The notes under the pieces: generated by a model
Told to the model about the DNA's origin: nothing
Seen by the model: only the letters and a program-made list of their open reading frames with translations
The model's database searches: none
Assembly (NCBI GenBank): GCA_903842345.1
Contig: CAIMLR010000039.1
Coordinates: 140,268-204,267 of the forward strand
Source: an uncultured Myxococcales bacterium
GTDB lineage: Bacteria > Myxococcota_A > UBA9042
Length of the DNA: 64,000 nt
Direction of reading: 5' to 3'
Position numbers and translations under genes: made by a program
Shown here: one piece after another, positions 4,701-27,233 of the stretch
How positions within the stretch are numbered: position 1 is the first letter of the stretch
Layout: every line of letters starts with the position of its first letter

Positions 4701-4959
4701 TGTGATCTGCCGGCAAAGCCCGGGAACGGCGAGCGGCGTGACGTTCTTTACCCTGGAAGATGAAACGGGTTTCTGCAACCTTGTGGTCTGGAAGGACATC
4801 ATGGCGCGCTTTCGCGTCGTGGCCCGCACGGCCAGCCTGCTGGGCGTAACGGGCCACATCCAGGCGGAAGACGGCGTGGTGCACCTGATCGCGGACACCC
4901 TGTGGACGCCAGAAATCGCCCAACCCGTGAGCGCACCGCGGAGCCGGGACTTCCACTAG
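1792..4959 (+). CDS. dnaE2: Error-prone DNA polymerase DnaE2 (PHP domain plus Pol III alpha catalytic core plus OB fold).
   Basis: N-terminal PHP domain ([45 protein letters not shown]). Pol III alpha motifs ([44 protein letters not shown]). C-terminal OB fold ([29 protein letters not shown]). About 1055 aa, the size of DnaE2 rather than DnaE1. Translationally coupled to imuB. Confidence 0.9.
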
Positions 4960-4995
4960 GCGAGAAGCGCCGCAGCGCGAGAATCAGGGTTTCGG

Positions 4996-5069
4996 TCGGG
5001 GAGACAGGATTCGAACCTGCGACATCCTGCTCCCAAAGCAGGCGCGCTACCGGACTGCGCTACTCCCCG
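4996..5069 (-). tRNA. tRNA-Pro (anticodon TGG).
   Basis: The reverse complement folds as a 74-nt cloverleaf: acceptor CGGGGAG/CTCCCCG with the C1:G72 pair characteristic of bacterial tRNA-Pro, discriminator A73, D-stem GCGC/GCGC, anticodon stem CCTGC/GCAGG with loop TTTGGGA (anticodon UGG, G37), T-arm GCAGG-TTCGAAT-CCTGT. Confidence 0.85.
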
Positions 5070-5104
5070 TTACTTACACAGACACCTTGACTCAGGCCCC
5101 CTTA

Positions 5105-5120: not shown

Positions 5121-5150
5121 GGTGCGGGGGATGGGGTACGCCAACACTGC

Positions 5151-5215
5151 GCTCCCAAAGCAGGCGCGCTACCGGACTGCGCTACTCCCCGTTACTTGTA
5201 CAGACACCGTTGCAC
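5151..5215 (-). pseudogene. Truncated tandem copy of the tRNA-Pro 5' half (positions 1-41) plus about 25 nt of upstream flank, the degenerate second unit of a roughly 122-bp tandem duplication.
   Basis: 5151..5191 is identical to 5029..5069 (gctcccaaagcaggcgcgctaccggactgcgctactccccg). Flanks 5192..5215 are nearly identical to 5070..5093. Beyond the anticodon loop the copy diverges and cannot form the anticodon stem or T-arm. Confidence 0.6.
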
Positions 5216-5334
5216 ACACCCGCTCCAGTGACGGTGCGGGGCGCGGAGCATCGCCGAGTCTGGAGGGGAACGTCAAGCGAAACTGCCGCTCCTGGACCGC
5301 AAAGCGCGCGGGCCAGGAGCGGCGTCGCATTCTC

Positions 5335-8300
5335 TTACCAACCGCTGCGGCCCTGGTCGTTGCGCTGGGCAGGATACAGACCGTTGGACACTTCCAAGGA
5401 GTACGGCGCGCAGATGGCCGCATCCGTGCCGGTCGGGCGGTAGATGTGAATCGCGTACCACGCGCTGTCATCCGCGCAGCGGCGCAAATCGTAGCCGTAC
5501 GGGAACGCGCCGTGGCCGGTGTAGGCATTGGGCGCGATGTACGAGGCGTTGGCATACCAGTACGCAGCGTAGCCGGTCGTCGGCGCGTTGTAGCAGTTGC
5601 TGCCGTTGTTCGGATACGCCTGGCAGTTACCCGTGTCATACGAGTCGCCGCTCCAGCACGGGAACTCGCCGTACTCCGACAAGGCGTTCGAGAACTGGTA
5701 GCTGCCGCCGCGGTACGTGTTGCCCGACGTGTACCACCAGAAATCGGTGTCACCGCAGCAAACCTGGTTCCAGCCAGCCGGCGTCGAGGAACTCGGCGCA
5801 GCGTAACCAGACGGCGTCGGCGTGAACCACGCGGGCTTGCCCGCACCGTTCTGGAACTGGACCGCGTTCGCACCAGCGCTGCCGGGGCAGAGCTGCGACG
5901 TCGACGAGCCACGGAAGACTTCCATGACCGCACTCGTCGGGTTGGACGGGAACCACGCGCGGACCGTGTACAGGTCGTACTGCAGGTTCACGCCGTAATC
6001 CGCCGCGTCAGCCGCGTAGAAGTAGTACCAGTCGTTGTCCGTTCCCAGGATGAGCGAACCCGAGATCGTCGCCTTCTGACCGTAGTTGCCGCCGCCCATG
6101 TTCAGGTTACCAAGGTCCGACAACGTGTTGCCCAAAGCCGGCGCAAGCTGGACGCCTGGGCAGGTGTTGTTGGCGGGCTCAAACGCGTCGTTGACATTGC
6201 ACTCGCAACCGTCGCTGCAGCCCGTCTGCCCGACGTTGCAAGGCAGCGCCGTGCCGTTGGTGTTCGCGAAGCCAGCCGCGCACGCCGTCACTTGGCAGAC
6301 GCCGGCGGTGCACGCCACCGTGGCATTGTTCGCCGCGCCGGAGAGCGGACCCGCGCCCGACGTGCACCAGTTGGCCGCATTGTCGTCGACGACGCCATTG
6401 CAGTTCTGATCCACGCCGTCGCAGCTTTCCGTCGCGCCCGGGTTGACCGAAGCCACCGAGTCGTTGCAGTCGCCACCGCCCTTCGTGCAGACCGTGGGCA
6501 GGCCCTTGGTGACCTTGGCCGAATCACAGTACGTGTCGCCGTCCTTGTCGCAGAGCTCGTCCACGCCGGTCACGCAGTTGTTGTCCAAGCCGTCGCACCA
6601 TTCCGCGTGCGTCGGGAACGCATCCGCGCCGCCAGCAGCCGGGTTGTCATTGCAGTCCAACGTCGTGCCCGCCGTCGGCGTGCCGCCCAACAAGAGCGCG
6701 CCATTTTGGGCAACCGTGTAGAGCAAGCTCTGCAGGTTGTTGGCGCACATGCACTGGGACGAGTTGATCGGGTAGCCGTCCTGGTCACCGTCAAAGAAGT
6801 AGTTGACGCAACCGCTGGCGTTCTGCTCGTCCGTCGCGCCGTTGCAGTTGTTGTCCAAGCTGTCACCGCAAAGCTCCAGCTTGCCCGGATTGATGCTCAG
6901 ACCCGTAGCGCCGGCCGTGTCATTGCAGTCGCCGCCGCCGAGGTTGCACGAAGCCGGCGTGCCAACCGTGACAAGGTTCTTGTCGCAGTAATGGTCGCCG
7001 TCCTTGTCGCAGTTCTCGTCCGTCGACGCGTTGCAGTTGTTGTCGAGGCCGTCGCACATTTCCGTCATGCCCGGGTTGACGTTCTTGGTCGTGTCGTCGC
7101 AGTCGTTGCCGACCAAGGACGCAGCCGGCGTCAGCGCGCACGCCGTGACGGTGACCGCGGTCTTCGTCATGGTCGCATCGCAGTAGCCGTCCTTGTCGTC
7201 GTCGCAACCTTCGTCCGTGACGCCGTTGCAGTTATTGTCCTTGTTGTCGCAGACCTCGGTCACGCCGCCGCCCTTGATGGCCGGATTCGTGTCGTCGCAG
7301 TCGTTGACCGTCTGCGAGCTGTACGTGCCCGTCGCGCGGCACCAGCACTGCGGCTGCGCAGCAACGCCCCAGCCGTCGCCGTCCGTGTCGTTGTAGAACG
7401 TCAGGCAGTTCTTGCCGTTCTGGTTGTTGTCGGTGCCGTCGCAGTTCTCGTCCACGCCAGGCGTCGCGCAGTCTTCGACAATGGCCGCACCCGGGTGGAT
7501 GTTGGCCGCGCCGTCGTTGCAGTCATTGCCAACCGCGCCCGTGCCCGTGCCGGAAGAAACGCACGTCGAGACGAGCACGCCGCTGGCGATGATGGCCGTG
7601 TTGGCGCAGTAGTCGTCGTTGTCGACGTCGCAGACTTCATCGATGCCGCCGACGCAGTTGTTGTCGACGTTGTCGCAGACTTCAACCGCACCCACGTAGA
7701 CCGCAGCGTTGTTGTCGTTGCAGTCGTCGCCGGTCGCGGTGGTGGAGCCTGTGGGGAACGGGCTGTTGCTGATGCAGAGCGCCGTCGCAGTGACCAGCTT
7801 GCCGACCGCACAGTGCTTGTCGTTGTCCACGTCGCAGTTTTCGTCAATCGTCACGACGCCGCTCGCCGCGGGTGTGATGACCGTGGTCAACCGGACGTCA
7901 ACGTTGAACACGCCAGCCGAACCGAACGCGGCGTACGTACCCGACGTAGGCAGCGCGCCGCCGGCCGCAGCGAACGAAGCGTAACCGTTCGGGTACGCGC
8001 TCGTGGCGTCGCTGGTGCCGGTCGTGTTGCGCTCAAACGTGCCACCGGTAACGGTCGCCTGTGGGTGGAAAACGACGTAGTAGACGTCATTCGTCGCCAA
8101 GGAGACCACGCCCGAGGCGATGGGGAACGTCGCAGCGCTCAGACCATTGGCCGTGACCGTCTGCGTGACCTTGGTGATCTGCGTGCCGACGCCAGGCGCG
8201 CCGCCCTTGAAGATGAACAGATCCACCGCGGAGGCGACGTTCACGGTATTGATGTAAATCGTCACCGAGGTGAGCGAGCCCGTGTTGGCCGCCTTCAAGG

Positions 8301-11300
8301 CCTGCGCGACGTAGTTGTTCAGCGAGTTCGTGCCCGGCGTCGCCAGACCCGGAATCACCACGTCGTTGACCGGCGTACCGCTGGCACCGACGTTGCAGTT
8401 GTTGTCGAGGCCGTCGCAGATCTCCGTCGCGCCCGGGTTGACCGTGGCCTTGGTGTCATCGCAGTCGCCCGTGATGCTCGCGGAGTAGTTCGGCACCGCG
8501 CCGACCGCCGACTGACGGCACTCGCAGACAGACGCCGCGGCGTTGCTGCCGTAGCCATCCTGGTCCGCGTCGACGTACCACGCGGTGCAGTTCGCCGCGC
8601 CAACTTCGTTGGTCAAGCCGTTGCAGTTGTCATCATACGCGGTGCTGCAATCTTCAGCGCGGCCGGGGTTGATGAGGTTGTTCGCGTCGTTACAGTCGCC
8701 GCCGCCGTTGGGGCACTTGCCGCCAGCCGACTGAACGCCATTGCAGTAGCCGTCGCCGTCCAGATCGTTGCAGCCTTCGTCCGTCCCGCCAACGCAGTTG
8801 TTGTCGATGCTGTCGCACAGTTCGACGGCACCCGGGTTGATGGTTGCACTGGAGTCGTTGCAGTCGCCGCCGCCAAAGATGCAAGCCGCCGGAGTGCCAA
8901 CGGTCGTCAGCGCCGCGTCGCAGTACTTGTCGCCGTCCTTGTCGCAGCTCTCGTCCGTCGTGCCGTTGCAGTTGTTGTCAACGCCGTCGCAGATTTCCGT
9001 CTTGCCCGGGTACACCGACGAGTTGGCGTCGTTGCAGTCCGTGCCGGAGCCCGCGGAAGCCTGGTTGAAGCAAGCCGTGCCCGCGCCGAAGCCGCCTGCC
9101 GCGACCGTCTTGGTCGTGGCGCAGTAGCCGTCCTTGTCCGCGTCGCAGCCGTCGTCCGTCACGCCATCGCAATTGTTGTCGATGCCGTCGCAGATTTCCG
9201 TGCCACCCGGATTCGCCGACGCCGCGTTATCGTTGCAGTCGTCGCCGAGCTTGGTGCTGCCCACGGCAGGTTTGGTCGTCTTCGTGCACGTCGCCGTCGA
9301 CGTGATGTACATCGTCGCGTCGCAGTACAGATCCGCGTCGTCATCGCAGCCTTCGTCAACCGTCGTGCCGGCGCCCGTGACCCCGACGTTGACGTTGATC
9401 TGCAGGTCCGCGGGACCAGCGTACGCCGAGTAGGCGCCCGTCAGCGTGGCAGCAAAAGACTCTGTACCGCTGGCGTACGGATTGGTGTTGTTGTCCGAAA
9501 TCAGCTGACCGGTCGCAGTGGTCGTGTGGAAGATCAACCCGTACGTCGCGCCCGCGGTCACGTTGATCGCGCCGGAGATCGTGAACGTCACCTTGGTCGC
9601 GGAGCCATAGGTCGGCACCGAGATGGTCTGGGTCGTGCCGATCTGCACGCCGCCCGCGGTCGGCAGACCGAGGGTGTAGACGAACATGTCCAGGTTGATG
9701 GTCTGCGTCGTCTTCACGTACACATCCACGCTGCTGAGTTGACCGGTGTGCTGCGCGACAAACGTCTGGCCAACAAAGTTGGTCAGCGAGTGCGTGACCA
9801 GCGTCGAGACCGGCTGCGTCACGTCAGCGAAGTACGTCGTACCGCCGGTCACGTTGCAGTTGTTGTCAATCGCGTCGCAGATTTCCGTCGCGCCCGGGTT
9901 GACCGACACCTTGGTGTCGTCGCAGTCGCCCGCCGCCGAAGCGACGTATTGGCCCTGCGCCGCGCACTGGCACTGATTCGCCGCGCTGTTGGCGCCGTAG
10001 CCGTCCAGGTCCGCATCCTTGTAGAACGGAATGCAGTTGGCCGCGCCGACGTCATTGGTCGTGCCGTTGCAGTTGTCGTCGTACGCGGTCAAGCAGTCCT
10101 CGGTCTTCAGCGGGCTGACGTTGGCGTTCGTGTCGTCACAGTCCGTGTTGAGGAGCGAGGTGTACTTGCCGGTCGCCACGCAGACGCACTGCGAGACGTT
10201 GACGCCGACGCCGTCGGAGTCGCCGTCCCAGTAGTAGTTGATGCAGCCGCTGCCGCCGACGCTGCCCGCGACGCCGTCGCAGTTGAAGTCCGTGGCGTTG
10301 CCACAGATATCGGTCGCGTTCGGGTGAACGGCGCTGTTCGTGTCGTTGCAGTCGCCGCCGCCACTCGGGCAGATGGTCGGCGAGCCGATGGTCGTCATGG
10401 TCGAATCGCAGTAGCCGTCGCCGTCGTCGTCACAACCTTCATCGGCGATGCCGTTGCAGTTGTTGTCGATGCCGTCGCAGAGTTCCGGCAGACCGGGGCT
10501 CGCCAGGTAGTTGCCGTCGTCGCAGTCGCCGCCCTTGCTGGAGGTGTACGGTGCCACGCCGGTGCACAGGCACTGGCCCGCGCCGCTGAGCGACAGGGTG
10601 CGCAAGAACGTGACGAACGAGGTGTTCTTGCCGCCGTTCGGCTGGCCCGGCGTGCCGGAGCCGCCCGCCACGTAGTTGGTTGCCACATCGACGCCAGAAA
10701 TGTCGCCGACAAACTGCACGTACGGCACAGCGACGGTCGGTGCCGTGTTGATCTGCGCCTTGCCGAAGCCGGGCTTGGCCGTCGACCACGCCCACGAGTC
10801 GATCGACGTCGTGCCGCTCAGGCTCGTGTCGACCCACGCCACGTCCGCGCCTGCGAAGTCGGCGCCACTCGCGTCGGTCAGCACATACGCGCCGTCGGTG
10901 TAGAGCTGGAGGTTCCAGTCGCCGGTCGCCGGGTTGTACGCCGTGTCTTCCGTGCCGATGATGCCCTTACCGCCCACGTTGATGATCGTGCCGGCCTTCA
11001 GGGTCGTGATGCCGAGCGCTCCGAGGTTCAGGTGGAAGGCGCCAACCTTGGCTGCGCCACTCGTCGACGAGTCGCCGAAGTAGATCGTCGCCAGGTCGGT
11101 GATGGTCCAGTCAGCCGTGACGAGGATTTCCATCGAATCCTGCGCCGTGGAGCCCGCGAACGTCGTCGACGAGTAGTGGATCTCGTTGATGACGGCCTTC
11201 TGGAAGGAGCTCGAGCCCTTGCCGTAGGTGTCGCCGTCGTAGTCCGCGAAGAACTGCGTGCAGCCTTGGGCGTTCAGGTCGTTGTAACCGCCGGAGCAGT

Positions 11301-14300
11301 TCTCATCGACCGTGTTGCCACAGACTTCCGTAGCGCCGGGGTTGATGGCGGCGTTGGTGTCGTTGCAGTCGCCGCCGCCCTTTGTGCAAACCGCGGGCGT
11401 GCCGACGGTCGTCATGTTCGCGTCGCAGTACTGGTCCGCATCGTCGTCGCACCCTTCGTCGATGCCGGTGCCGGCGGAGACGCTGGCGATGACGTGCAGG
11501 TCGGTGTTGCCGCTGCCCAACAGCGTGTAGACGCCGGTCAGGCTTCCAGCGAACCAGGCCTGGCCGCTGGCGTACGGGTTGCTCGTGCCGCCGGAAATCG
11601 GCGAATCCTCGATAGTCGGGCTCCCGATGGGCGCCGGGCAGTTGAAGACGACGTAGTACGTCGCACCCGAGACGATGTTGGTACCGGCCGAGGCGGTGAA
11701 CGTAAACTTGGTGAACGCGCCCGAGGTGTTGGAAAGCGAAATCGAAACCTTGGAGCCGAGCAGCGTGCCGCCCGCACCCGGCAAACCGCCGGTGTAGACG
11801 TACATGTCGATGGCCTGGACAACCGTGCTCTTCGCGTAGAGGTCGACAGTGCCAAGGGCGCCGCTGTGCGTCGCGACGAGGGACTGGACGATGAAGCTGG
11901 AGAGCGCGTTGCTGTTGCCAGTGGCTGAAATCGCCACGTCAACCGACGGCGCGGCGCCCGCGCTGCAGTTGTTGTCCTTGCCGTCGCAGAGTTCATTGCC
12001 GCCGGGGTTGGTGTTCGGATCGGTGTCGTCACAGTCGCCGCCGCCGAGGATGCACACGTTGGGCGTGCCCACGACGGTCATCGCGCTATCGCAGAACTTG
12101 TCGCCGTCCTTGTTGCAGCCTTCATCGACCTTGCTGTTGCAGTTGTTGTCGATGTTGTCGCACTTCTCGGGCTTGCCCGGGTTCATGTTGGCGTTGGTGT
12201 CATCGCAGTCGCCCGACTGCGCGGCGGTGTACGGGGCCGTAGACGCGCACGTGCAGGCGCTGAGGCTGATGCCGTAGCCGTCGTTGTCGTTGTCGTAGTA
12301 GCGCACCGTGCAGCCCGTCGCGCCGTTCTCGTCGATGGTGCCGTCGCAGTTGTTGTCCTTGCCGTCACAGACTTCGGTCGCGGACGGATTGATCGACGCG
12401 CTTGTCTCGTCGCAGTCACCCAGCTTGGTCGCCTTGTACGAGCCGGCCACCGTGCACAAGCACTTGCCGGTCGAACCGCTGAGACCATAGGTGTCACTGT
12501 CGCCGTCAAAGTAGTACGTCGTGCAACCGGCCGCGTTCAGGTCGTTCTGGCTGCCGTTGCAGTTGTCGTCCAGGTTGTTGCCGCAAACTTCCGTCGCGCC
12601 CGGGTTCTGGTCGCTGTTGAGGTCGTCGCAGTCGCCGGCGCCCTTCGGGCAGATGGTCGGCAACGGGAAGATGACGGTGTAGGCCGCGTCGCAGTAGCCG
12701 TCCTTGTCGTCATCGCAGCCGTCGTCGGTCTTGCCGTTGCAGTTGTCGTCGATGTTGTCGCAGACTTCCTGGCTCTTGCCCTTGAAGACCGCCGCGTTGG
12801 TGTCATCGCAGTCGCCGCCGCCGTTCGGGCACTTGGTGACCGGACCGCTGAACTTCATGTTGGCGTCGCACTGACCGTCCGAGTCGTCGTCGCAACCTTC
12901 ATCGATCGTGCCGTTGCAGTTGTTGTCGAGGTTGTCGCAGATCTCCGTCGCGGCCGGGTTGACGGCCTTCTTGGAGTCGTCGCAATCCGCGCTGTTCGTC
13001 GCGGTGTACGTGCCGCTCGGCGAGCAGAACTTGGCCGAGAACGTGGAACCGTACGTATCGCCGTCCAGATCCTGGTAGAACGGCAGGCTGCCGAGCGCGT
13101 CCTGATCGTTCTGGCTGCCGTTGCAGTTGTCATCCTTGCCGTTGCCGCAGATTTCCGCCTTGCCCGGATTGACGTTCGCGTTGGTGTCGTCGCAATCGTT
13201 GATGCCGTTCTTGCAGATCGTCGGGTTGCCCACGATCGTCGCGCCGGTGTGGCAGTAGCCGTCGCCGTCGACATCGCAGCCTTCGTCAATCACCTTGTCG
13301 CAGTTGTTGTCGATGCCGTCGCAGATTTCCAATGAGCCCGGATTGATCGCCGGATCGCTCTCATTGCAGTCGCCCGGATTGATCGCCTTGTACTGGTTCA
13401 ACGGGACGCAGAGGCACTTGCTGGAGTTGGTGCCCCACTTGTCGCTGTCCGCGTCAAAGAAGAACGGCTGGCAGTCCTTGGCGTTCTGGTCGTTGTTGGA
13501 GCCGTTGCAGTTGTCGTCATACGCCGTGCCGCAGTCTTCCTGCACGCCGGGGTTGATCGTGGGCGCGGTGTCGTCGCAGTCGTTGCCGCCGTTCGGGCAC
13601 GCCGGCGGCTTGCCGATCGTGTACATGTTGGCGTCGCAGTAATCGTCGCCGTCATCGTCGCAGCCTTCGTCGACCTGGGCGTTGGAGTTGTTGTCCTTGC
13701 CGTCGCAGATTTCCTGACCAGCGGGGTTGATCGCCGGATCGGTGTCGTCGGTGTCGCCGGGGCCCGCCGGGCAGACGAGGATCGGCGCCTGGGTCGAGTC
13801 GTACGCCATGCTGGCGTCGCAGTACTTGTCGCCGTCGTCGTCGCAGCCCTCGTCGGTCTGGCCGTTGCAGTTGTCGTCGAGGTTGTTGCACTTCTCCGGG
13901 CTGCCCGGGTTGACGTTGGCGTCGGCGTCCTGGCAATCGCCGGGCTTGCTGGCGGTCAGGAGGCCGGAAGGCAAGCACTGGCAGGTGAACGGCGAGGTGC
14001 CGTAGCCGTCCGAGTCGATGTCCGTGTAGAAGTTGCTGCAGCCGAGCGCGCCCTGATCGTTGGCGTTGCCGTCGCAGTTGTCGTCGTACGTCGTGGCGCA
14101 CGTTTCAGCGACGCTCGGGTTCACATCGACGTTGGCGTCGTTGCAGTCGCCGGTCTTTGTCGCCTTGTACTGGCCGTTCGCGGTGCACAGGCACTTCGCG
14201 AGGCCCGCGCCAAACGTGTCGGAATCGACGTCGCGGTAGTACTGCACGCAGCCGCTGGCGTTTTCTTCGTCCTGGCCGTTGATGCAGTTGTCGTCTTTGC

Positions 14301-17300
14301 CGTTGCCGCAGATTTCCGGCATGCCGGGATTCACGGTCGAGTCGGTGTCATTGCAGTCGCCCACGCCCGCGAAGCACACCGCCGGCGTGCCCTTGACCGT
14401 GTACGTCGCGTCGCAGTAGCCGTCGCCGTCGTCGTCGCAACCTTCATCGACCGTGCCGTTGCAGTTGTTGTCGATGCCGTCGCAGATTTCCTTGGCGCAA
14501 GCCGGGTCGCCGCAGCAGGACGCCGGGTCCGCGCAGTCCGTCAGGTTGTTGCCGTTGTCGTCCGCGGCGTTCGTGCAGTTCTCACCGGCGTCGCAGCTGA
14601 CCACGATGTCGAACATGGCCGAGGCGGTTTCGCCCGCGACGTCGACGACGAAGTAGTAGAGCTGGTCCTTGCCCGCGGCGAACGTGACCGTGTTGCTGAC
14701 GCCGCCAAAGCCGACGCAGCCGTCCGGATCGCAGCCCTTGCTCGTCGCCTTGATGATGAACAGGCGCGCCGTCGGATCCGACACGTTGGAGAGCGTGACC
14801 GTGACCGGGCGCGACTGCGCGCTCTTGTACGTGAACGCCACTTCATGGCCGAGGTAGCTGTTGGTCGGATCGCACGTGTAGGTCGTCACCGCGTTGGTCG
14901 ACGCGCCGCCGTTGGTCACGATCTTGGCCGCGCTCTCGCCACAGCCGAGCGCCGTGTCGCCGCCGCAGAGGCAGGTGTTGGAGTTGCTGCATTCGCCAGC
15001 GGTGCAGGTGTCCGCGGTGCAGCTGTTGCCGTCGTTGCAGTCCGAGTTCTTGACGCAGCTGCCAAAGCCGTTGGCGAAGAAGGCGAGGATCGCCTTCATC
15101 ATCGTGTCCGGCGTGTCCGTGTTGGCCAGGATGCCGGCGAACGGAACGGACGACGCGATGGTGCGGTACTTCGACGTCAGGTCATCGTGACCGACCATGA
15201 CCGTGAACTTCTCAATGCCCGTGTTGACCAACAGGTCGCGGGTGCGCTGCACGGACGTGTCCGAGGCGATCTGGTCGTTCAGGTTGTCGTAGGTCGAGTC
15301 CTGGTTGAAATTCCACTGCATGTTCGTCGACGGATTGACCGTGTTGTTGGCGAACGCAGCGTAGCCCGTCAGCGGACCCGTCACGCCATTGGGCGCTTCA
15401 TCGAGCACGCCTTTGGCTTTGAAGAACGGATGCAGCGTCGTCTTCGGGTCGTACATGAAGGTGTCGCCGCCTTCCATGTACACCTTGCCGCCCTGCGCGA
15501 GGTACAGTTTGAGGCTCGTGGTCTCCGATTCCGACAGCACGTGGTTGTCCGGGTAGTTGCCCAGCAGGACGAACACGGACGAGAACTTGTTCAGGGACGG
15601 GTACAGCGCGAGGTCGCTGATGACCTGATTGATCTGGCCCTGCTTGATGAGCGCGGCCTTCACCGGGTCGCTCATCGCGGTCGGGACTTCCGTCGGCCGC
15701 CAAACGAGGACGCCGCCCTGATAGGTCACGGTCACCTTGAAGGTGCACGTGTGGTACAGGTAGCCGTCCGAGACCTTGAGGCCAAGCGTGTACTCGCCCA
15801 CGTCCTGCACGCCAGTCGGCGCGATGGTGATCGTGCCGTTCCAGCTCTTGTCGACAAAGTAGTAGTTCATCTGCGAACCGACGATGAACGACGGGGCGCC
15901 CGTGAGCGTCGCGGTGACGACGTCGCCCGCATCCGGATCCTTGACCTTGATCGGCAGGATGATCTTGCTGCCGGTCGGCACGACCTGGTTGGCCGGGCAC
16001 GCGGTGATGACGGGCGCGCCACCCTTGACGACGCACACGTTGTCGATGGCGTACGAGGACAGGTTGAACGTCGAGGTGCCGGAGACGCAGAACGCGAGGC
16101 GCAGGCCGTTGGAGCCAACGAGCGAGGCGGGCAGCTTCAGGTCGACGGTTTCCGGGCCCACGCCGCTTGTGGTCGTGAATGAGTCGATGACCGTCGCGGT
16201 CTGCCAGTCGGCGTACGTGCCGTCGAGCGAACCGAGGATGCGGATGCCGGTTTCACCGACGTTCGGAATGAATTCGCGATCGTACTGGATGGTGATGGCG
16301 CTGGTGCCCGAGCCGAGGAAGACCGGCGACTGGAGGCACGTGTCATAGCCAACCTTGGTCGGCGTCCAGTTGAACTGGGCGAAGCGGTCGGGGCCGAGGT
16401 TGCCGGTCGTGGCGGTGTTCCAGTTGCTCGCCGCGGTGCCGCTGACGTTGGCCGGATCCCAGCCGAGCGTGGCGAGGTCGCTGCTCTGGCTGAAGTCCTG
16501 GCAGTAGCTGAGGTTCACGGTGCATGCGGCCTTTTTGGTGGCCTGGCAGGCGAGCGTGCCGTCGGTCTGCTGCAGGCACTTGCCCTGCGTGCAGTCGCTG
16601 TTGAAGGACGCGCACTCGGTCGCTTCATTGAGCGGGTTGCAGCACACGGAGACGCCGGCGACGGTGTCCGTGTGGTAGCAGGTGCTGGCGATGCACGCAT
16701 CCGCGGTGCAGGCTTTGGCGTCGTCGCAGTCCGTCTTGTCGATGCAGCAGCCGGCGATCGGCGTGTGCGTCGGGAGACCGTTGACGCACGTGTCGGCCGT
16801 GCACTTGTTGGCGTCGTCGAAGGAAGCCAGGTTGGTCGGCGTGCAGATCGAGCACGGCGGCGTCAGCGTGTACTGGCACGTGCCGGTCGGCTGGCCGCTG
16901 ACGATGTTGCACTTGTCCGCCGAGCAGGAAACGCCGTCATCGCAAGCCGCGTCGTTCACGCAGCAGCCGGTCGCCGGCGTGCTGTGGCGGCACTGGTTGT
17001 TCTGGCAGTATTCCACCGTGCAGGGGTTGGAGTCGTCGCACTTGGTCAGCGCGTCCTTGTCGTTCAGGCAGCAATCCGCCTTGACGCCAAACGCGCAGAA
17101 GTGGGTCGTCAAGTCGCACGTCGCCGTGTGGCACGTCGCGAGGTACGGGTTGGTCGCCTTGTCGGCGGCGGCGCAGAACGTGTCCGTCGTGCAGCAGTTC
17201 TGAATCAGCGGGTGCGAGCAGGCGCCGCAGCCGTCGGCATTCAGGTTGCAGACGTCCTGCGTGCACGGCGCGCCGTCGTCACAGTCGAGGTCCACTTTGC

Positions 17301-19065
17301 ACGCGTACGGGTTGGCCTTGTGCGTGCAGTGATTGGTCGAGTCGCACGCGTCGTTGGTCGAGCAGTCGCCGTCGTCGCAGCCGGCGCCGGAGTCACAGCA
17401 GGTGCTGTCGCCGTTCGGAACGTTGACGCAGGTGTGCTGGGTCAGATCGCAGCTGTCGATCGTGCAGAACAGCTTGTCGTTGCACGCTGAAGCCGCATTG
17501 CTGGAGTCACAGCAGCCCGCGACGGGCAAGCCGAGGCACTGGTGGTTCACGCACACATCGGCGGTGCAGTACTTGCCGTCGTTGCAGTCCGTGTCGATGT
17601 CGCAGCAGCCGTTGAACAGGCCAACGTGCTTGCAGGTGTTGATCGGCGCGTCGCAGTAGTCGCTCGTGCAGTACAAGCCGTCATCGCATTCTTTGTTGAT
17701 GTTGCAGCAACCGGCGACCGCATCGTGATGGCAGAACTGGTTCGGCACGTCGCAGGAGTCATTGGTGCACAGATTGTTGTCGTCGCACATCGCGTTGTTC
17801 TGGCAGCATTCCGTGTTCTTGGTGTGCTGGCACTGGTTGTTGACGCACTTGTCCAACGTGCAGGGCTGGCCGTCGTCGCACAGGTCGATCAGCGGATCGC
17901 AGCAATTCGAGTCGGTCTTGTTGTGCGTGCACTGCGTCCAGCCGCCGGGCATGGCGGTGGTGCAAGCGTCCACGGTGCAAGCGTTTTTGTCGTCGCAGGT
18001 GGTGTTGCTCGTCGCGGAGCAGCAGTCGGGCTTGAAGTAGCTGTCCGCCGTGTAACGGCACTGGAACGCGATGCAGCCGCCGACTTTGCAGACGTCGTCC
18101 GACGCGCACTCGCTGTCGGCGCAGCACGCGCCCGCGGGCTGAACGTGATTGCAGACACCGATGCCGCCGCCGCTGGGCAGGACGCATGCGTCCGTGGTGC
18201 AGGGCTTGCCGTCGGAGCAGGCGTCCGTCGACTTGGTGCAGCAGTTGGGGTCGCTCTTGTTGTGCGTGCAGACGCCCTTGACGCCGCTCAGGTCGCACTT
18301 GTCGGTGGAGCAGGCGTCGCCGTCGTCGCAGTTCGCGTCGGTCAAGCACGCCGAGCACTGGGAATTCTGGGTGTTCGGGTTGATGCAGTTGCTGCCCGCG
18401 GAGCAGTCGAAATTGGACGTGCAGCAGTTCGGGACGATCTGGACCACGCACGTGCCAGCCTGGCAGTACTCGCCGGTGCAGGCGTCGCCGTCATCGCAGT
18501 CGGCGTCTTTGCCGCAGGGCGCAGTGATCTTGACCTGACGCACGCCTTGCGCGGCGCCGGTGGCGTCAAACAGGTCCTGACCCGTCGCGTCCAGCAGCAC
18601 GCAAGCCAGCGTGTGGCCGCCCTTCTTCAGGCCGGTAAACGTGACCGGCGAGCCCACCGTGAAGGTGCCAAAGAGGATGCCATCGACGTAGCAATGCACC
18701 TCGTTGCCGGTGTAGTTCGTCGTCGTGTACGCAAAGTCCACGTTGGTCGTGCCAGCGTTCGTGGACACCGGGAACGCAGCCTGGTTGGCCGGCGCGCTCA
18801 CCGCAATCGTCGGCGTGGTCAGTGCGAAGGTCTCGACACCGAACTCAGCGTCCACGCCAATCGCGACGTCCGGCGTTGCCGGCTTCTCCGTCGAAGGCGT
18901 TTGACCAGCGCAGCCGGCTAGACCCGCAGTCAGGAGCGACAACGCCAAAAACGCACCAAACTTGGCAAAGCCAAGTCCGAAGCGTTTCGACGACCGTTCG
19001 TCCTGTGTGCGGTGGGCAGTAGAGAGCCCCGGGCTACACATGCGCGCAATGTGCTGGTTCCGCAT
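5335..19065 (-). CDS. Giant (about 4,570-4,635 aa) secreted Cys-rich repeat lipoprotein. Architecture: N-terminal lipoprotein signal; Myxococcus-type Cys-rich repeats; a Cys-poor central region with Ig/cadherin-like and other globular domains; about 2,700 aa of MopE-like putative metal-binding repeats (DCDDxxxxxNPGAxExCDGxDNNCNGxxDEGCDxDxDGYCD) interrupted by three paralogous Cys-free beta-modules and a lamin-tail-like domain; C-terminal Cys-rich region with a PPC-like (pre-peptidase C-terminal) domain (TDNDWYYF).
   Basis: Uninterrupted ORF 5335..19242. In-frame Mets at 19065 (MRNQHIARM...) and 19041 (MCSPG...) precede a lipobox (KRFGLGFAKFGAFLALSLLTAGLAG|C, Cys at about 18912). Dozens of near-identical NPGATE[IV]CDG[IKL]DNNCNG units. 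Coordinates were checked by back-translating 15481-15590 (KFSSVFVLLGNYPDNHVLSESETTSLKLYLAQGGKV). The + strand ORF 5122..11928 is its antisense shadow. Confidence 0.85.
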   Translation of the reverse strand: MRNQHIARMCSPGLSTAHRTQDERSSKRFGLGFAKFGAFLALSLLTAGLAGCAGQTPSTEKPATPDVAIGVDAEFGVETFALTTPTIAVSAPANQAAFPVSTNAGTTNVDFAYTTTNYTGNEVHCYVDGILFGTFTVGSPVTFTGLKKGGHTLACVLLDATGQDLFDATGAAQGVRQVKITAPCGKDADCDDGDACTGEYCQAGTCVVQIVPNCCTSNFDCSAGSNCINPNTQNSQCSACLTDANCDDGDACSTDKCDLSGVKGVCTHNKSDPNCCTKSTDACSDGKPCTTDACVLPSGGGIGVCNHVQPAGACCADSECASDDVCKVGGCIAFQCRYTADSYFKPDCCSATSNTTCDDKNACTVDACTTAMPGGWTQCTHNKTDSNCCDPLIDLCDDGQPCTLDKCVNNQCQHTKNTECCQNNAMCDDNNLCTNDSCDVPNQFCHHDAVAGCCNINKECDDGLYCTSDYCDAPINTCKHVGLFNGCCDIDTDCNDGKYCTADVCVNHQCLGLPVAGCCDSSNAASACNDKLFCTIDSCDLTQHTCVNVPNGDSTCCDSGAGCDDGDCSTNDACDSTNHCTHKANPYACKVDLDCDDGAPCTQDVCNLNADGCGACSHPLIQNCCTTDTFCAAADKATNPYLATCHTATCDLTTHFCAFGVKADCCLNDKDALTKCDDSNPCTVEYCQNNQCRHSTPATGCCVNDAACDDGVSCSADKCNIVSGQPTGTCQYTLTPPCSICTPTNLASFDDANKCTADTCVNGLPTHTPIAGCCIDKTDCDDAKACTADACIASTCYHTDTVAGVSVCCNPLNEATECASFNSDCTQGKCLQQTDGTLACQATKKAACTVNLSYCQDFSQSSDLATLGWDPANVSGTAASNWNTATTGNLGPDRFAQFNWTPTKVGYDTCLQSPVFLGSGTSAITIQYDREFIPNVGETGIRILGSLDGTYADWQTATVIDSFTTTSGVGPETVDLKLPASLVGSNGLRLAFCVSGTSTFNLSSYAIDNVCVVKGGAPVITACPANQVVPTGSKIILPIKVKDPDAGDVVTATLTGAPSFIVGSQMNYYFVDKSWNGTITIAPTGVQDVGEYTLGLKVSDGYLYHTCTFKVTVTYQGGVLVWRPTEVPTAMSDPVKAALIKQGQINQVISDLALYPSLNKFSSVFVLLGNYPDNHVLSESETTSLKLYLAQGGKVYMEGGDTFMYDPKTTLHPFFKAKGVLDEAPNGVTGPLTGYAAFANNTVNPSTNMQWNFNQDSTYDNLNDQIASDTSVQRTRDLLVNTGIEKFTVMVGHDDLTSKYRTIASSVPFAGILANTDTPDTMMKAILAFFANGFGSCVKNSDCNDGNSCTADTCTAGECSNSNTCLCGGDTALGCGESAAKIVTNGGASTNAVTTYTCDPTNSYLGHEVAFTYKSAQSRPVTVTLSNVSDPTARLFIIKATSKGCDPDGCVGFGGVSNTVTFAAGKDQLYYFVVDVAGETASAMFDIVVSCDAGENCTNAADDNGNNLTDCADPASCCGDPACAKEICDGIDNNCNGTVDEGCDDDGDGYCDATYTVKGTPAVCFAGVGDCNDTDSTVNPGMPEICGNGKDDNCINGQDEENASGCVQYYRDVDSDTFGAGLAKCLCTANGQYKATKTGDCNDANVDVNPSVAETCATTYDDNCDGNANDQGALGCSNFYTDIDSDGYGTSPFTCQCLPSGLLTASKPGDCQDADANVNPGSPEKCNNLDDNCNGQTDEGCDDDGDKYCDASMAYDSTQAPILVCPAGPGDTDDTDPAINPAGQEICDGKDNNSNAQVDEGCDDDGDDYCDANMYTIGKPPACPNGGNDCDDTAPTINPGVQEDCGTAYDDNCNGSNNDQNAKDCQPFFFDADSDKWGTNSSKCLCVPLNQYKAINPGDCNESDPAINPGSLEICDGIDNNCDKVIDEGCDVDGDGYCHTGATIVGNPTICKNGINDCDDTNANVNPGKAEICGNGKDDNCNGSQNDQDALGSLPFYQDLDGDTYGSTFSAKFCSPSGTYTATNSADCDDSKKAVNPAATEICDNLDNNCNGTIDEGCDDDSDGQCDANMKFSGPVTKCPNGGGDCDDTNAAVFKGKSQEVCDNIDDNCNGKTDDGCDDDKDGYCDAAYTVIFPLPTICPKGAGDCDDLNSDQNPGATEVCGNNLDDNCNGSQNDLNAAGCTTYYFDGDSDTYGLSGSTGKCLCTVAGSYKATKLGDCDETSASINPSATEVCDGKDNNCDGTIDENGATGCTVRYYDNDNDGYGISLSACTCASTAPYTAAQSGDCDDTNANMNPGKPEKCDNIDNNCNSKVDEGCNKDGDKFCDSAMTVVGTPNVCILGGGDCDDTDPNTNPGGNELCDGKDNNCSAGAAPSVDVAISATGNSNALSSFIVQSLVATHSGALGTVDLYAKSTVVQAIDMYVYTGGLPGAGGTLLGSKVSISLSNTSGAFTKFTFTASAGTNIVSGATYYVVFNCPAPIGSPTIEDSPISGGTSNPYASGQAWFAGSLTGVYTLLGSGNTDLHVIASVSAGTGIDEGCDDDADQYCDANMTTVGTPAVCTKGGGDCNDTNAAINPGATEVCGNTVDENCSGGYNDLNAQGCTQFFADYDGDTYGKGSSSFQKAVINEIHYSSTTFAGSTAQDSMEILVTADWTITDLATIYFGDSSTSGAAKVGAFHLNLGALGITTLKAGTIINVGGKGIIGTEDTAYNPATGDWNLQLYTDGAYVLTDASGADFAGADVAWVDTSLSGTTSIDSWAWSTAKPGFGKAQINTAPTVAVPYVQFVGDISGVDVATNYVAGGSGTPGQPNGGKNTSFVTFLRTLSLSGAGQCLCTGVAPYTSSKGGDCDDGNYLASPGLPELCDGIDNNCNGIADEGCDDDGDGYCDSTMTTIGSPTICPSGGGDCNDTNSAVHPNATDICGNATDFNCDGVAGSVGGSGCINYYWDGDSDGVGVNVSQCVCVATGKYTSLLNTDCDDTNANVSPLKTEDCLTAYDDNCNGTTNDVGAANCIPFYKDADLDGYGANSAANQCQCAAQGQYVASAAGDCDDTKVSVNPGATEICDAIDNNCNVTGGTTYFADVTQPVSTLVTHSLTNFVGQTFVAQHTGQLSSVDVYVKTTQTINLDMFVYTLGLPTAGGVQIGTTQTISVPTYGSATKVTFTISGAINVTAGATYGLIFHTTTATGQLISDNNTNPYASGTESFAATLTGAYSAYAGPADLQINVNVGVTGAGTTVDEGCDDDADLYCDATMYITSTATCTKTTKPAVGSTKLGDDCNDNAASANPGGTEICDGIDNNCDGVTDDGCDADKDGYCATTKTVAAGGFGAGTACFNQASAGSGTDCNDANSSVYPGKTEICDGVDNNCNGTTDESCDKDGDKYCDAALTTVGTPAACIFGGGDCNDSSATINPGAVELCDSIDNNCVGGTDEGCNDLDGDGYCNGVQSAGGKCPNGGGDCNDANNLINPGRAEDCSTAYDDNCNGLTNEVGAANCTAWYVDADQDGYGSNAAASVCECRQSAVGAVPNYSASITGDCDDTKATVNPGATEICDGLDNNCNVGASGTPVNDVVIPGLATPGTNSLNNYVAQALKAANTGSLTSVTIYINTVNVASAVDLFIFKGGAPGVGTQITKVTQTVTANGLSAATFPIASGVVSLATNDVYYVVFHPQATVTGGTFERNTTGTSDATSAYPNGYASFAAAGGALPTSGTYAAFGSAGVFNVDVRLTTVITPAASGVVTIDENCDVDNDKHCAVGKLVTATALCISNSPFPTGSTTATGDDCNDNNAAVYVGAVEVCDNVDNNCVGGIDEVCDVDNDDYCANTAIIASGVLVSTCVSSGTGTGAVGNDCNDGAANIHPGAAIVEDCATPGVDENCDGTDNNQNGKNCLTFYNDTDGDGWGVAAQPQCWCRATGTYSSQTVNDCDDTNPAIKGGGVTEVCDNKDNNCNGVTDEGCDDDKDGYCDATMTKTAVTVTACALTPAASLVGNDCDDTTKNVNPGMTEMCDGLDNNCNASTDENCDKDGDHYCDKNLVTVGTPASCNLGGGDCNDTAGATGLSINPGKLELCGDSLDNNCNGATDEQNASGCVNYFFDGDQDGYPINSSQCMCANNLQSLLYTVAQNGALLLGGTPTAGTTLDCNDNPAAGGADAFPTHAEWCDGLDNNCVTGVDELCDKDGDTYCDSAKVTKGLPTVCTKGGGDCNDSVASVNPGATESCDGVDQNCNGVVDDNAANWCTSGAGPLSGAANNATVACTAGVCQVTACAAGFANTNGTALPCNVGQTGCSDGCECNVNDAFEPANNTCPGVQLAPALGNTLSDLGNLNMGGGNYGQKATISGSLILGTDNDWYYFYAADAADYGVNLQYDLYTVRAWFPSNPTSAVMEVFRGSSTSQLCPGSAGANAVQFQNGAGKPAWFTPTPSGYAAPSSSTPAGWNQVCCGDTDFWWYTSGNTYRGGSYQFSNALSEYGEFPCWSGDSYDTGNCQAYPNNGSNCYNAPTTGYAAYWYANASYIAPNAYTGHGAFPYGYDLRRCADDSAWYAIHIYRPTGTDAAICAPYSLEVSNGLYPAQRNDQGRSGW

Positions 19066-19878
19066 CGCATTCCTCTTGACGACAGATTCCGGCAAAGGGA
19101 GGGCGCATTCAGCAGTGGCATGGCGGGGAGATATGTGCGGGTTTCGGCTCGTGCGGCATCGCGTGATGCTACCGGTTCGATTCCCACTGGCTTCGTCTAC
19201 CTGTGTCAGCAAGCGTCGCCGCTTGTCGTTATCGCCGCGCATGTTCAGCGCAGCTCAGGTGTCAGAAACCACTCCCTGCTCTCGGCTGGCAGCCATCGAA
19301 ACCGCAGGTTGGCCTTTCCTGCGGAGGTGTACTCGATGGGCGTCCAGTCGCACTTGCCGTCGGTCTTCGCCTGCCTCCGATATGGAGACGTCTTGAAGAC
19401 TTTTTGCACCCTAACTCGTTGGAATGTCCTGTCGTATCGGCACTGTTGCAGGGGGATCGCAACCGTAACTCGTTCCGTCGCACGATGCGGGCTGTTTCGG
19501 GCCTGGCAGCCGTCCACAGATTCATCGTCGGCAGCGAATTCTCAAGCGCCCGTTGGGGAAGCGCGGGACGATTTGCACCGTCTCGCGCCGTCGGAGCGCC
19601 ACTTGCAGTCGTCGTTGAAACCCCGTCCAACGGTCGACTACACGGAATTCGGGATTCGGAGGCTCGCCTGCGTCAACCTGGGGTGGTTGAGCGGTCAAAC
19701 CCGTCGCTGTTGCGGATCAGGCAGTTGCGACGGCGACCGGTAACGGGGCGCTCTCGACGCCAAGTACCGGTCCTCCATCGTTGACGTTAGCAAAGCAACT
19801 ACCGGAACGCAAGCAGAAGCAACGTGTCCATGGGCTTTGGCCAAATGCGCCGGAGTTTTGTCGCGTCGCCGCTTGGGT

Positions 19879-20586
19879 TCAGCGGATTTCCGCCGCATCG
19901 CTTGGCCGCGGTCGGAGTCGCCACTGCGCGGCGATTTGTTCGCTCCAGCCGGCCAAATCAGCCGGTTCCGGCGGCCCAGGCTCAGTGAGATTGGCAAATG
20001 CGATCCATGGTTTACCACAGAGAACGAGACCGTTTGCCAGACGCGGATCGACGGCGATATTGATCGCCACGCCGTGTTGCGCGACGTCGGCGCGCAGGCG
20101 CAAACCGAGGCTCGCCAGCTTGCCCTCCGCGCGCCACACGCCCACGTCGTCGGCCAGATCGCGGCGCGCATCCACGCCGCAAGCGCCCGCCAACTCAGCA
20201 ATTCCATGGAGAAGCTCGGCGCAAAGCTGACGCGCCTGCCAGCGCGAACACGGCACGGCGAGAAACGCGACGATCTGGCCCGGCGCGTGCAGCGTGCCCA
20301 GACCACCGCGATCGACCGGGACGATCGCAATTTGCCGCGCCGCGCACACAGCCAGGGAAGCTGCGATCGCCGCCTGCCCCGCGGGCTCCTGCGCGCGGCG
20401 TCCGAGGGCGTACACCGGCGCGGCGGGCTCAAAGAAGACGATTTCGCCCGGGGCGCCGGCCGCAACCGCATCGGCGATCTGGCGATTGCGGGTGACCATC
20501 TCGGCAAAAGGCTGCCGCCCCAGCCAGCGCCACGGGAGATCGGCGAGCAGCGACGGCGCTGACGGGCTCAGTGAAACAGCATCCAC
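19879..20586 (-). CDS. lipB: Octanoyltransferase LipB (lipoyl(octanoyl) transferase).
   Basis: Motifs RGGLGTLHAPGQIVAF (equivalent to the RGGxxTYHGPGQ motif), KLASLGLRL, and catalytic Cys in LVLCGKPWIAFANL. Overlaps the cdsA stop by 19 nt. Confidence 0.8.
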   Translation of the reverse strand: MDAVSLSPSAPSLLADLPWRWLGRQPFAEMVTRNRQIADAVAAGAPGEIVFFEPAAPVYALGRRAQEPAGQAAIAASLAVCAARQIAIVPVDRGGLGTLHAPGQIVAFLAVPCSRWQARQLCAELLHGIAELAGACGVDARRDLADDVGVWRAEGKLASLGLRLRADVAQHGVAINIAVDPRLANGLVLCGKPWIAFANLTEPGPPEPADLAGWSEQIAAQWRLRPRPSDAAEIR

Positions 20587-21374
20587 GCGAGCATCACCGG
20601 CGCAGCAAACAGCACGCCGTCCAGTCGATCGAGAATGCCGCCATGACCCGGCAGCAGCCCACCCGAATCCTTGGTGCCCGTCGCGCGCTTGAACAGCGAC
20701 TCCGCAAGATCGCCGATCTGGCCGACCATGCCGCCCGTCGCGCCCATCAGCAGGCCCTGAACGACGGTCAGTTGCGGCACCAGCAGCTGCTGCGCGATGT
20801 AACCGCCGAGGATCGACGCGGCGAGACCGCCGAGCGCGCCCTCCATCGTCTTCTTGGGGCTGATGAGTTCGTACAGCTTGTGGCGGCCAAAGGAGCGACC
20901 GGCAAAGTACGCGCCAGTGTCGCCGGCGAACACGACGATGAGGAGCGAGAGCACCGCGCCACGGCCGGTGTCAAAACGCCCGCCGGTGGGCACCTGGGCG
21001 AGCGCGAAGGTCTGCACGATCACGCCAAACAGCGTCGCGACGTACGCAAGGCCCAGCAGGCCGATCGCCGCGCGCTTGCCCGCCGCCTCCACCGAGCCCG
21101 GACGGACGAGGCACCAGCACAGCCATGCGACCGGCAGCACACTCGGAATCAGCCACATCTCGCGCATGCCAACCACAAACGCCGTGAGCATCGCCAGCGG
21201 CGCGAGGACCAGGCGGTCCTGCGTCCGAACTTCCGGGTACATGCGGACCAACTCGTCGACGCCTTGGGCCGCGGCCATCGCCAACAGCGCGAAGAACACG
21301 AATTTGGGCGCGAAGAGCACGATCAGGATGAGAATCGGCGCCAGAATGAGACCTGTGATGACCCGCTGTGCCAT
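20568..21374 (-). CDS. cdsA: Phosphatidate cytidylyltransferase CdsA.
   Basis: Multi-TM protein with the CdsA C-terminal signature (KRATGTKDSGGLLPGHGGILDRLDGVLFAAP). Probable start at the internal Met (MAQRVITGLILAPIL) at 21374; the longer ORF runs to 21512. Confidence 0.8.
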   Translation of the reverse strand: MAQRVITGLILAPILILIVLFAPKFVFFALLAMAAAQGVDELVRMYPEVRTQDRLVLAPLAMLTAFVVGMREMWLIPSVLPVAWLCWCLVRPGSVEAAGKRAAIGLLGLAYVATLFGVIVQTFALAQVPTGGRFDTGRGAVLSLLIVVFAGDTGAYFAGRSFGRHKLYELISPKKTMEGALGGLAASILGGYIAQQLLVPQLTVVQGLLMGATGGMVGQIGDLAESLFKRATGTKDSGGLLPGHGGILDRLDGVLFAAPVMLAWMLFH

Positions 21375-21396
21375 GCCAACCTCCGCCTGCCGCGTT

Positions 21397-22230
<834 letters not shown>

Positions 22231-27230: not shown

Positions 27231-27233
27231 CCG

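Follow-up and report, generated by a model that had tools for sequence, protein, structure and literature searches.

The window examined here is a stretch of 64,000 nucleotides (nt) from an uncultured Myxococcales bacterium (assembly GCA_903842345.1, contig CAIMLR010000039.1, positions 140,268 to 204,267). On its reverse strand it contains a gene for a cysteine-rich protein of 4,576 amino acids (aa), referred to below as the giant protein, in which an array of repeat units of the Pfam family PF11617 carries whole domains nested inside single units. The reading I favour, with a little more confidence than doubt, is that of a lipid-anchored, probably Ca2+-stiffened stalk displaying exchangeable binding domains, that is, a giant surface adhesin. 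An earlier note on this DNA had also proposed such an adhesin; the surface role, which I infer as well, is suggested by the lipobox, the nested domains of binding type, the MAM/'cleaved-adhesin' and immunoglobulin (Ig) folds and the PPC-related end. In order, the modules are a lipid anchor, Cys-knot repeats (about 14-19, counting degenerate units), a head (MAM-like, Ig, alpha/beta and beta-sandwich domains), the 34-unit array and the PPC-related end, with the following coordinates, which agree within a few tens of bases with the boundaries drawn previously (HMM, hidden Markov model):

5335..19065 (-): giant lipoprotein gene, 4,576 codons plus stop
18910..19065 (-): extended lipoprotein signal peptide, aa 1-52, with MRNQH start, about 28 extra aa in the n-region, hydrophobic core and lipobox LAG/C
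18511..18909 (-): N-terminal linker and beta-rich, perhaps Ig-like domain, aa 53-185 (weak Pfam BiPBP_C match, E 0.033)
16486..18510 (-): Cys-rich repeat region, aa 186-860 (self-trained HMM)
16021..16485 (-): MAM-like jelly-roll, aa ~861-1015 (AlphaFold model and Foldseek)
15718..16020 (-): Ig-like domain, aa ~1016-1116 (Pfam He_PIG, E 5.9e-4, sub-threshold; Foldseek Ig matches)
15058..15717 (-): alpha/beta domain, aa ~1117-1336 (secondary structure of the model)
14584..15057 (-): further Cys unit and beta-sandwich, aa ~1337-1494 (model; weak Big_9 match)
14500..14583 (-): teneurin-like Cys-rich motif C.NAADDNGNNLTDCADPASCCGD, aa ~1495-1522 (weak profile match)
6358..14499 (-): PF11617 array, aa 1523-4236 (Pfam and self-trained HMM)
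11470..11940 (-): nested insert 1, choice-of-anchor-R-like, aa 2376-2532 (unit halves HMM 1-32 and 26-49)
10528..11217 (-): nested 'LTD-like' insert of 230 aa, aa 2617-2846, in the DGYG/CxC loop of a B-type unit
9367..9846 (-): nested insert 2, choice-of-anchor-R-like, aa 3074-3233 (unit halves HMM 1-27 and 26-48)
7852..8385 (-): nested insert 3, choice-of-anchor-R-like, a swapped cassette, aa 3561-3738 (NCBIfam and drop in identity)
5338..6219 (-): C-terminal PPC-related domain, ~290 aa, aa 4283-4576 (family profile)

The repeat array and its nested domains

PF11617, a family that the earlier note had proposed to search for, matches the giant protein with 663.2 bits (E 6.8e-205) in 28 stretches (gathering threshold 27 bits), and is the sole family in a Pfam scan of the whole protein, per-segment scans with Pfam and NCBIfam otherwise giving weak sub-threshold matches only. 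The HMM trained on the protein itself finds 34 unit matches, or about 31 units once the halves of insert-split units are paired, and not the approximately 60 MopE-like units counted before. The units fall into two subtypes, most of them with six Cys, and DxDxD loops are six-fold enriched, with 29 observed against 4.9 +/- 2.3 in shuffled sequences. The number of units hardly varies within the family: a comparison of orthologs, also suggested previously, gives 31-34 units and 323-394 Cys in all 46 relatives, which range from 92% to about 40% identity, and the occupancy of the scaffold in an alignment of the whole family is about 1.0. It is an ancient array whose units are orthologous position by position, and its copy number is not labile.

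Into this scaffold whole beta-sandwich payload domains are looped out of units at three positions, in the giant protein three choice-of-anchor-R-like domains and one other. Three units are split by Cys-poor inserts of 157-178 aa, and the halves of each split unit are complementary in the HMM. The assignment to choice-of-anchor R is strongest for insert 3 (NCBIfam choice_anch_R, NF041539: 28.3 bits against a cutoff of 30, E 1.4e-6) and weaker for insert 1 (16.4 bits, E 0.0069), and insert 2 aligns with the other inserts of this kind; 5 of 16 homologous inserts from orthologs match as well (best E 2.5e-10). The 230-aa insert, found in 14 of 47 sequences, is called 'LTD-like' by motif only. PF00932 (LTD), whose search had been proposed in the earlier note, matched none of nine inserts at E<=1, leaving that label without statistical support; there was no relative in the PDB, and an hhalign comparison with the lamin A tail, using a single sequence, was uninformative (3.9%, with only the 11 residues of TLKAGxxxxVG aligned).

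The occupancy of inserts across the family is 0.15-0.5 (about 0.15-0.46 for insert 1). In other members the insertions cluster at three loop types, DNNCNG/xxDEGCD, YCD.../..C..GGGDC and DGYG/..CxC (the slash marks the insertion point), and the payloads include a SUEL lectin (at one site in 25 of 46 members), a C-type lectin, TLDc+MAM, PQQ-like propeller repeats and further R-like domains. The clearest case of variation comes from the ortholog P0001, which is 92% identical to the giant protein: identity is 94.5% outside insert 3, 29% inside it, and eroded to 70-78% in the 100 residues flanking it. Most payloads are 87-94% identical between close orthologs, and head and C-terminal domain are 97-98% identical to those of P0001. 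Insert 3 of the window shares 67% identity with the insert that P0006 has at this site, and 60% with one that P0002 has at a different site. Given the swap relative to P0001 and the presence of this cassette type at a different site in P0002, cassettes therefore move by recombination, and for one cassette the exchange of payload between close relatives is shown.

A profile of the C-terminal domain finds 464 cluster representatives among 1.8 billion proteins. Of 146 representatives, 144 have the domain ending no more than 40 residues before their C-terminus, 90 contain MopE units as well, and the median length is 417 aa. Those small proteins that were tested consist of PF11617 repeats, with or without TSP_3 or Dicty_CTDC, and then the C-terminal domain, which is the usual C-terminal partner of MopE repeats. 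It contains the motifs EPN...TDNDWYYF, a Cys-rich insertion with CCGDTDFWWYT, and ...AWYAIHIYR...YSLEVSNG. The PPC-like nature read earlier from TDNDWYYF stands only in part: the motif is present, and PF04151 (PPC), which the note had named for a search, has no match at E<=1 in any of 12 C-terminal domains of the family, nor is there a sequence relative in the PDB. An hhalign comparison with the PPC domain of ColG (a single sequence) was uninformative, at a probability of 3%. The relation is made through an intermediate: the C-terminal profile has many matches (E 4.8e-24) in P0158, a type IX secretion system (T9SS) protein, and at the D.DWF.F motif these line up in register with the PPC units that Pfam calls there. 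Through P0158 alone, then, the domain is supported as a divergent PPC relative with a Cys-rich insertion.

The gene, its start and the N-terminal half

The open reading frame (ORF) is uninterrupted over 5335..19242 (-), or 4,635 codons, and thus single, as had been claimed. The G+C content by codon position (GC3 0.89, against GC1 0.53 and GC2 0.51) shows a strong coding periodicity that holds throughout, with no frameshifts. Within this frame the start at ATG 19065, the one previously chosen, is borne out by a GAGGA ribosome-binding site and an MRNQH start kept in four loci, one of them distant (the aligned DNA of the four reads AAGAGGAAT-GCG-ATG), and by the orthologs, which start at the corresponding Met. 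With this conserved start the protein has 4,576 aa. Its mature form, of 4,525 aa and about 465 kDa, is very acidic (pI about 4.05), with 582 acidic and 176 basic residues; the giant protein contains 333 Cys (7.3%), well short of the more than 500 once stated.

The lipobox reported earlier is there, LLTAGLAG/C with the Cys at residue 52, and conforms to [LVI][ASTVI][GAS]C (...FLALSLLTAGLAG/C). Of 46 family members, at least 33 have a lipobox-like motif and 26 an MR.QH start. The n-region is about 28 residues longer than in distant relatives, whose lipobox Cys stands at residue 24; the MRNQH start is retained despite the extension, and the extended signal peptide is limited to close relatives within the family. 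The giant protein is most likely a lipoprotein, lipidation being predicted from the lipobox and the proximity of lgt and lspA.

Upstream of the gene lies a gap of 813 nt (19066-19878), and near its far end a promoter-like block that is conserved in four loci (the window, L002, L003 and the distant L004) and is not called by a generic sigma-70 scan; its position implies a 5' leader of some 700 nt or more, in which close orthologs share long conserved stretches. An Rfam search of the leader (19066-19878) gave no match; it may be a structured leader or a regulatory RNA. After the stop codon a terminator-like element can be read from the sequence:

19783..19816 (-): promoter-like block TTGCGT-17 nt-TAACGT
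5275..5324 (-): terminator-like element, GC-rich hairpin followed by a T-rich tail

On the other strand an antisense ORF of 2,268 aa (5122..11928, +) failed the codon-position G+C filter for coding ORFs, and was rejected as a gene: I take it for a shadow ORF to which the repetitive and GC3-rich sequence of the coding strand gives rise.

A metagenomic source and a repetitive protein sequence naturally raise the suspicion that so long an ORF is an artefact or pseudogene, arising from collapsed or expanded repeats or from the fusion of several genes, and the earlier note had warned of assembly collapse or expansion in highly repetitive DNA. The DNA is not repetitive in this sense: the copies of the repeat are only 60-80% identical to one another, long exact repeats are absent, and Tandem Repeats Finder picks up one 41-nt array and no other. 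With copies that have diverged to this extent, an assembler has nothing to collapse. At least four contigs in the public collection encode the 4,576-aa protein in identical form, there are six collinear full-length orthologs, and the constancy of unit number in the 46 relatives and the unbroken periodicity argue likewise. Mis-assembly of the gene is very unlikely, and I give the artefact next to no credence.

The linker and beta-rich domain at aa 53-185 are conserved across the family (occupancy >0.9). In the Cys-rich region that follows, the self-trained HMM finds 14 clear DGxxCTxDxC...C...CC units plus degenerate ones. Pfam Dicty_CTDC (PF00526) reaches 21.3 bits against a cutoff of 27 (E 2.4e-4, 5 stretches), and PF00526 is on record for several orthologs. 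The 'Myxococcus-type' repeats of the earlier note are thus present as Cys-rich units at 16486-18510, without a match of the NCBIfam Myxococcus Cys-repeat (TIGR02232) on the window protein at E<=1. Its Cys-poor central block (14584-16485) is upheld, with jelly-roll, Ig, alpha/beta and beta-sandwich domains in an AlphaFold model at a predicted local distance difference test score (pLDDT) of 83.9. Foldseek relates the jelly-roll to the meprin MAM domain (4gwm, E 4.5e-7), the scavenger-receptor MAM domain (8yt7, TM 0.49) and the gingipain K1 'cleaved adhesin' (4itc, TM 0.69); Pfam MAM has no match on the window protein. The alpha/beta domain has no Pfam or NCBIfam match. Outside the family its only sequence relatives, at 31-39% identity, are accessory domains, found in Bacteroidales T9SS C25 (gingipain-like) peptidases and in an Acidobacteria papain+dockerin protein, and it may be an undescribed family of accessory domains of secreted proteins. 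An isolated Cys unit (aa 1345-1367) precedes the beta-sandwich. A profile search of the PDB with the central block gave only two weak matches, a mannosyltransferase (E 0.18) and Teneurin-4 (7plp, E 0.19), the latter to the teneurin-like motif.

Function and alternative readings

As a lipid-anchored stalk the protein would work as follows. It would be exported by Sec, and Cys52 would be lipidated by Lgt and LspA, both encoded just upstream; an outer-membrane lipid anchor would then hold a long, very acidic, disulfide-locked stalk reaching outward. Each unit would contribute three predicted disulfides and an Asp-rich DxDxD(G) loop, most likely binding Ca2+ and stiffening the rod, and the head, the payloads and the C-terminal domain would bind glycans, particles or other cells multivalently. 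A more specific version is a tentative proposal that I hold possible and would not yet lean on: the PF11617 array may be a dedicated display scaffold, a fixed-length Ca2+/disulfide rod with three loop types that accept nested cassettes, shuffled by recombination within and between genes.

Several points weigh against the adhesin. The array and the C-terminal part are unmodelled (an AlphaFold run on aa 3534-4576, from an alignment of 14 sequences, failed at pLDDT 40.9), so rod shape, disulfides and Ca2+ sites come from motifs only. Surface exposure needs an export route across the outer membrane, and none was found in the neighbourhood. All family members are 'hypothetical' proteins from metagenome-assembled genomes (MAGs), known from sequence only, and no ligand is known for choice-of-anchor R, the 'LTD-like' insert or the alpha/beta domain. 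Vertical inheritance beside essential genes may be all that lies behind the synteny with lgt and lspA, and the giant gene has its own promoter-like block behind a gap of about 800 nt. The Foldseek matches of the failed model (CBM6/35/36 and Cwp84 lectin-like, E 1e-3 to 2e-2) hint at a jelly-roll and are not relied on.

Among the alternatives, a copper-binding or copper-sequestering polymer is what the Pfam name 'Cu-binding_MopE' implies, and the earlier note had thought of a 'metal-binding polymer'. The PF11617 score would fit it, as would the very many carboxylates able to bind divalent cations, and for the Asp-rich N-terminus of MopE* a weak Cu(II) site has been considered (PMC3423442). The only PDB match of the whole protein, however, is to residues 9-47 of MopE* (E 0.023, phmmer), within an N-terminal stretch not seen in the crystal, and the Cu(I) ligands, His132, His203 and a kynurenine-130 derived from Trp130, lie elsewhere (PMC3423442); PF11617 covers a small part of MopE/CorA only (PMC6189053). 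Compared against the PDB with phmmer, the giant protein shows no homology to the core that carries the Cu(I) site. Across the family only Cys, Asp, Asn, Glu, Pro and Gly are invariant in the units; His and Met are not among them, and make up 0.9% and 0.7% of the protein. Thrombospondin type 3 and LDL-A modules are Ca2+-binding, Cys-rich motifs similar to the units, and a similarity of the motif to the teneurin C-rich region has been described (PMC3278476). As the set of ligands is oxygen-only, it points to Ca2+ rather than Cu, and from these motifs Ca2+ would be the better guess; a polymer in the copper sense of MopE I regard as improbable. In another reading the protein would be structural, cross-linked by Ca2+ into a surface layer, extracellular matrix or fibril that lends mechanical strength, with nested domains that mediate self-assembly and no ligand-specific adhesion. 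Extreme acidity and DxDxD loops would suit this, the unit number fixed over deep divergence suggests a constraint on length, and two paralogs per genome and the strong conservation of head and C-terminal domain relative to P0001 are in line with it. Yet the payloads differ strongly among orthologs and include true lectins, and a cassette swapped between 92%-identical proteins fits a diversifying interaction surface better than a lattice, which makes this reading fairly unlikely.

The same swap could also be taken to indicate a polymorphic recognition receptor resembling TraA of Myxococcus xanthus, with a Cys-rich stalk and variable domains for kin or partner, phage or predator-prey contact, the swapped cassettes setting specificity. 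TraA itself combines a variable domain with Cys-rich repeats and a MYXO-CTERM sorting tag (PMC13184517), and a Cys-rich stalk with variable nested domains, one of them replaced between near-identical orthologs, is seen in the giant protein as well. Against this, Pfam and NCBIfam searches of all segments found neither a PA14-type variable domain nor MYXO-CTERM, no traB-like partner is adjacent (the neighbours are the lipB-like gene and tRNA-Pro/dnaE2), most payloads are fairly conserved between close orthologs, and the bearers are planktonic lake bacteria with no known social behaviour. I therefore consider a receptor of this kind distinctly unlikely.

Family, neighbourhood and known systems

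Full-length collinear orthologs are found at 92, 75, 73, 71, 65 and 63% identity (4,546-4,921 aa), and the wider family comprises proteins of 3,600-6,500 aa. That few genes reach this size, as the earlier note had it, does not apply within the lineage, where such lengths are usual and often occur twice per genome. In a scan of one genome per species with the conserved central block as query, the full-length block was confined to MAGs of uncultured Myxococcales/Myxococcota, nearly all of them recovered from groundwater or from lakes (Swedish lakes, Baikal, Tanganyika, Mendota, Zurich). Two paralogs are present in many genomes, one about 50-84% and the other about 44-47% identical to the window protein, for instance in the MAGs with the locus pairs L005/L037, L008/L024 and L007/L030. 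The paralogs of the second type (e.g. P0042) sit in an unrelated context of ribH-nusB, an M10 peptidase and a Ser/Thr kinase.

The genes near the giant gene in the window are the following:

23215-24228 (-): lspA (Pfam)
22234-23202 (-): lgt (Pfam)
21397-22230 (-): uppS (Pfam)
20568-21512 (-): cdsA (Pfam)
19879-20499 (-): lipB-like gene (NCBIfam LipB, 71.5 bits, below its cutoff)
4994..5069 (-): tRNA-Pro(tgg) (ARAGORN; Rfam tRNA, 69.9 bits)

Wherever the flank of a type-1 locus is long enough (about 27 species-level genomes), the giant gene is immediately preceded, on its own strand, by the block lspA-lgt-(uppS)-cdsA-lipB, unlike the downstream flank, which varies. A lipoprotein gene beside both lipoprotein-processing genes suggests a possible functional link, although plain vertical inheritance could also account for it. 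Divergent from lspA and syntenic in all type-1 loci, the stretch 24207-29663 (+) encodes an HxsD protein that passes its NCBIfam cutoff and three HxsC-like radical-SAM proteins that fall short of theirs, a cluster that resembles a His-Xaa-Ser peptide-maturation system. On the downstream side, 170-4959 (+) contains an imuB-like gene (IMS family) and dnaE2, an error-prone polymerase cassette that converges on tRNA-Pro and the giant gene and is retained only in close orthologs.

The tRNA-Pro lies 265 nt downstream of the stop codon, which confirms the adjacency noted before. Its 5' half (41 nt) has an exact copy at 5151-5191, 122 nt upstream of the intact gene; including about 33 nt of upstream region, the duplicated segment (5151-5224 against 5029-5102) is 88% identical over 74 nt. 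Relative to the giant gene, the tRNA-Pro of the orthologous loci L002 and L003 is on the opposite strand. Half-copy and strand change point to a local inversion or duplication in the lineage of the window. A genomic island, prompted by the tRNA-Pro, was considered and dropped, since about 27 genomes retain the gene, by vertical descent, together with its upstream flank. The G+C content of the giant gene is only slightly below that of its flanks, which its amino-acid composition may explain.

Neither size nor repeat type is new, since Myxococcota have been listed with other phyla in which very large genes abound (West-Roberts et al. 2023, bioRxiv 10.1101/2023.11.21.568195) and PF11617 proteins are routine annotations. 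With the 'MopE-related' PF11617 proteins common in Myxococcota the giant protein shares the same 30-residue motif, in 28-34 copies, and the PPC-related C-terminal domain and often the lipobox, which occur in hundreds of smaller proteins (median 417 aa). It differs in being ten times larger, in belonging to a family with 31-34 fixed, positionally orthologous units and whole domains nested inside them, and in its long conserved N-terminal half of Cys repeats, MAM-like, Ig and alpha/beta domains. To MopE/CorA of methanotrophs (PDB 2VOV) the likeness is confined to the short Asp/Cys-rich N-terminal motif (MopE* 9-47); their Cu(I)-binding core has no counterpart in the giant protein, which is not a member of the MopE/CorA family. 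TraA is likewise a Myxococcota surface protein with Cys-rich repeats beside a variable domain, and the N-terminal repeats of the giant protein are of the general C.DG..CT.D.C type. The giant protein, in contrast, has an N-terminal lipid anchor in place of MYXO-CTERM, no PA14-like domain and no traB, and its variable domains are nested in a second, different type of repeat. The PPC signature EPN...D.DW[YF].F...YY..V (PF04151) stands at its extreme C-terminus, with a Cys-rich insertion of about 100-150 aa (CCG.TDF.WFT) that PPC lacks, and joined to a repeat protein, not to a protease.

Giant modular bacterial adhesins are similar in their very large size, repeat arrays and lectin or carbohydrate-binding (CBM-like) modules, whereas the giant protein is lipid-anchored and disulfide-rich and its payloads are nested, not tandem. 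Pfam scans, whole and per segment, found no RTX/type I secretion system (T1SS), LPXTG, dockerin or autotransporter features; as to adhesins of the T1SS RTX/Bap/SiiE type, there was no RTX or BIg Pfam match, and no T1SS genes were among the neighbours checked. With TSP type 3, LDL-receptor class A and teneurin modules the units share disulfide-locked DxDxDG and CDGxDNxC..DE-type motifs, and TSP_3 co-occurs with PF11617 in relatives, but the likeness is at the level of motifs only, the giant protein having no Pfam TSP_3 or LDL-A match. In a full-text literature search I found no description of the giant family or its fixed 31-34-unit scaffold, of the rule-like nesting of domains in three loop types with exchange of cassettes, or of the constant PPC-related pairing and the position downstream of lspA-lgt.

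For annotation, the giant gene is real and should be neither split nor flagged as mis-assembled. Of the unexplained modules in Myxococcota surface proteins, PF11617 repeats are some of the most common, under a name that wrongly suggests copper binding, and this family gives a clear comparative view of their use, as a positionally conserved scaffold that tolerates whole-domain insertions at defined loops and is paired with a PPC-related end and a lipid anchor. It would also serve as a marker for an uncultured but widespread lineage of lake Myxococcota, perhaps predatory or particle-attached, and is a candidate for a key structure on their surface, and the set of payloads, lectins included, points to testable ligands. 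Should the array indeed be a dedicated display scaffold, planktonic myxobacteria would possess a reprogrammable, multivalent receptor for prey, particles or glycans, a bacterial counterpart of the modular matrix receptors of eukaryotes and a template for engineering domain insertions.

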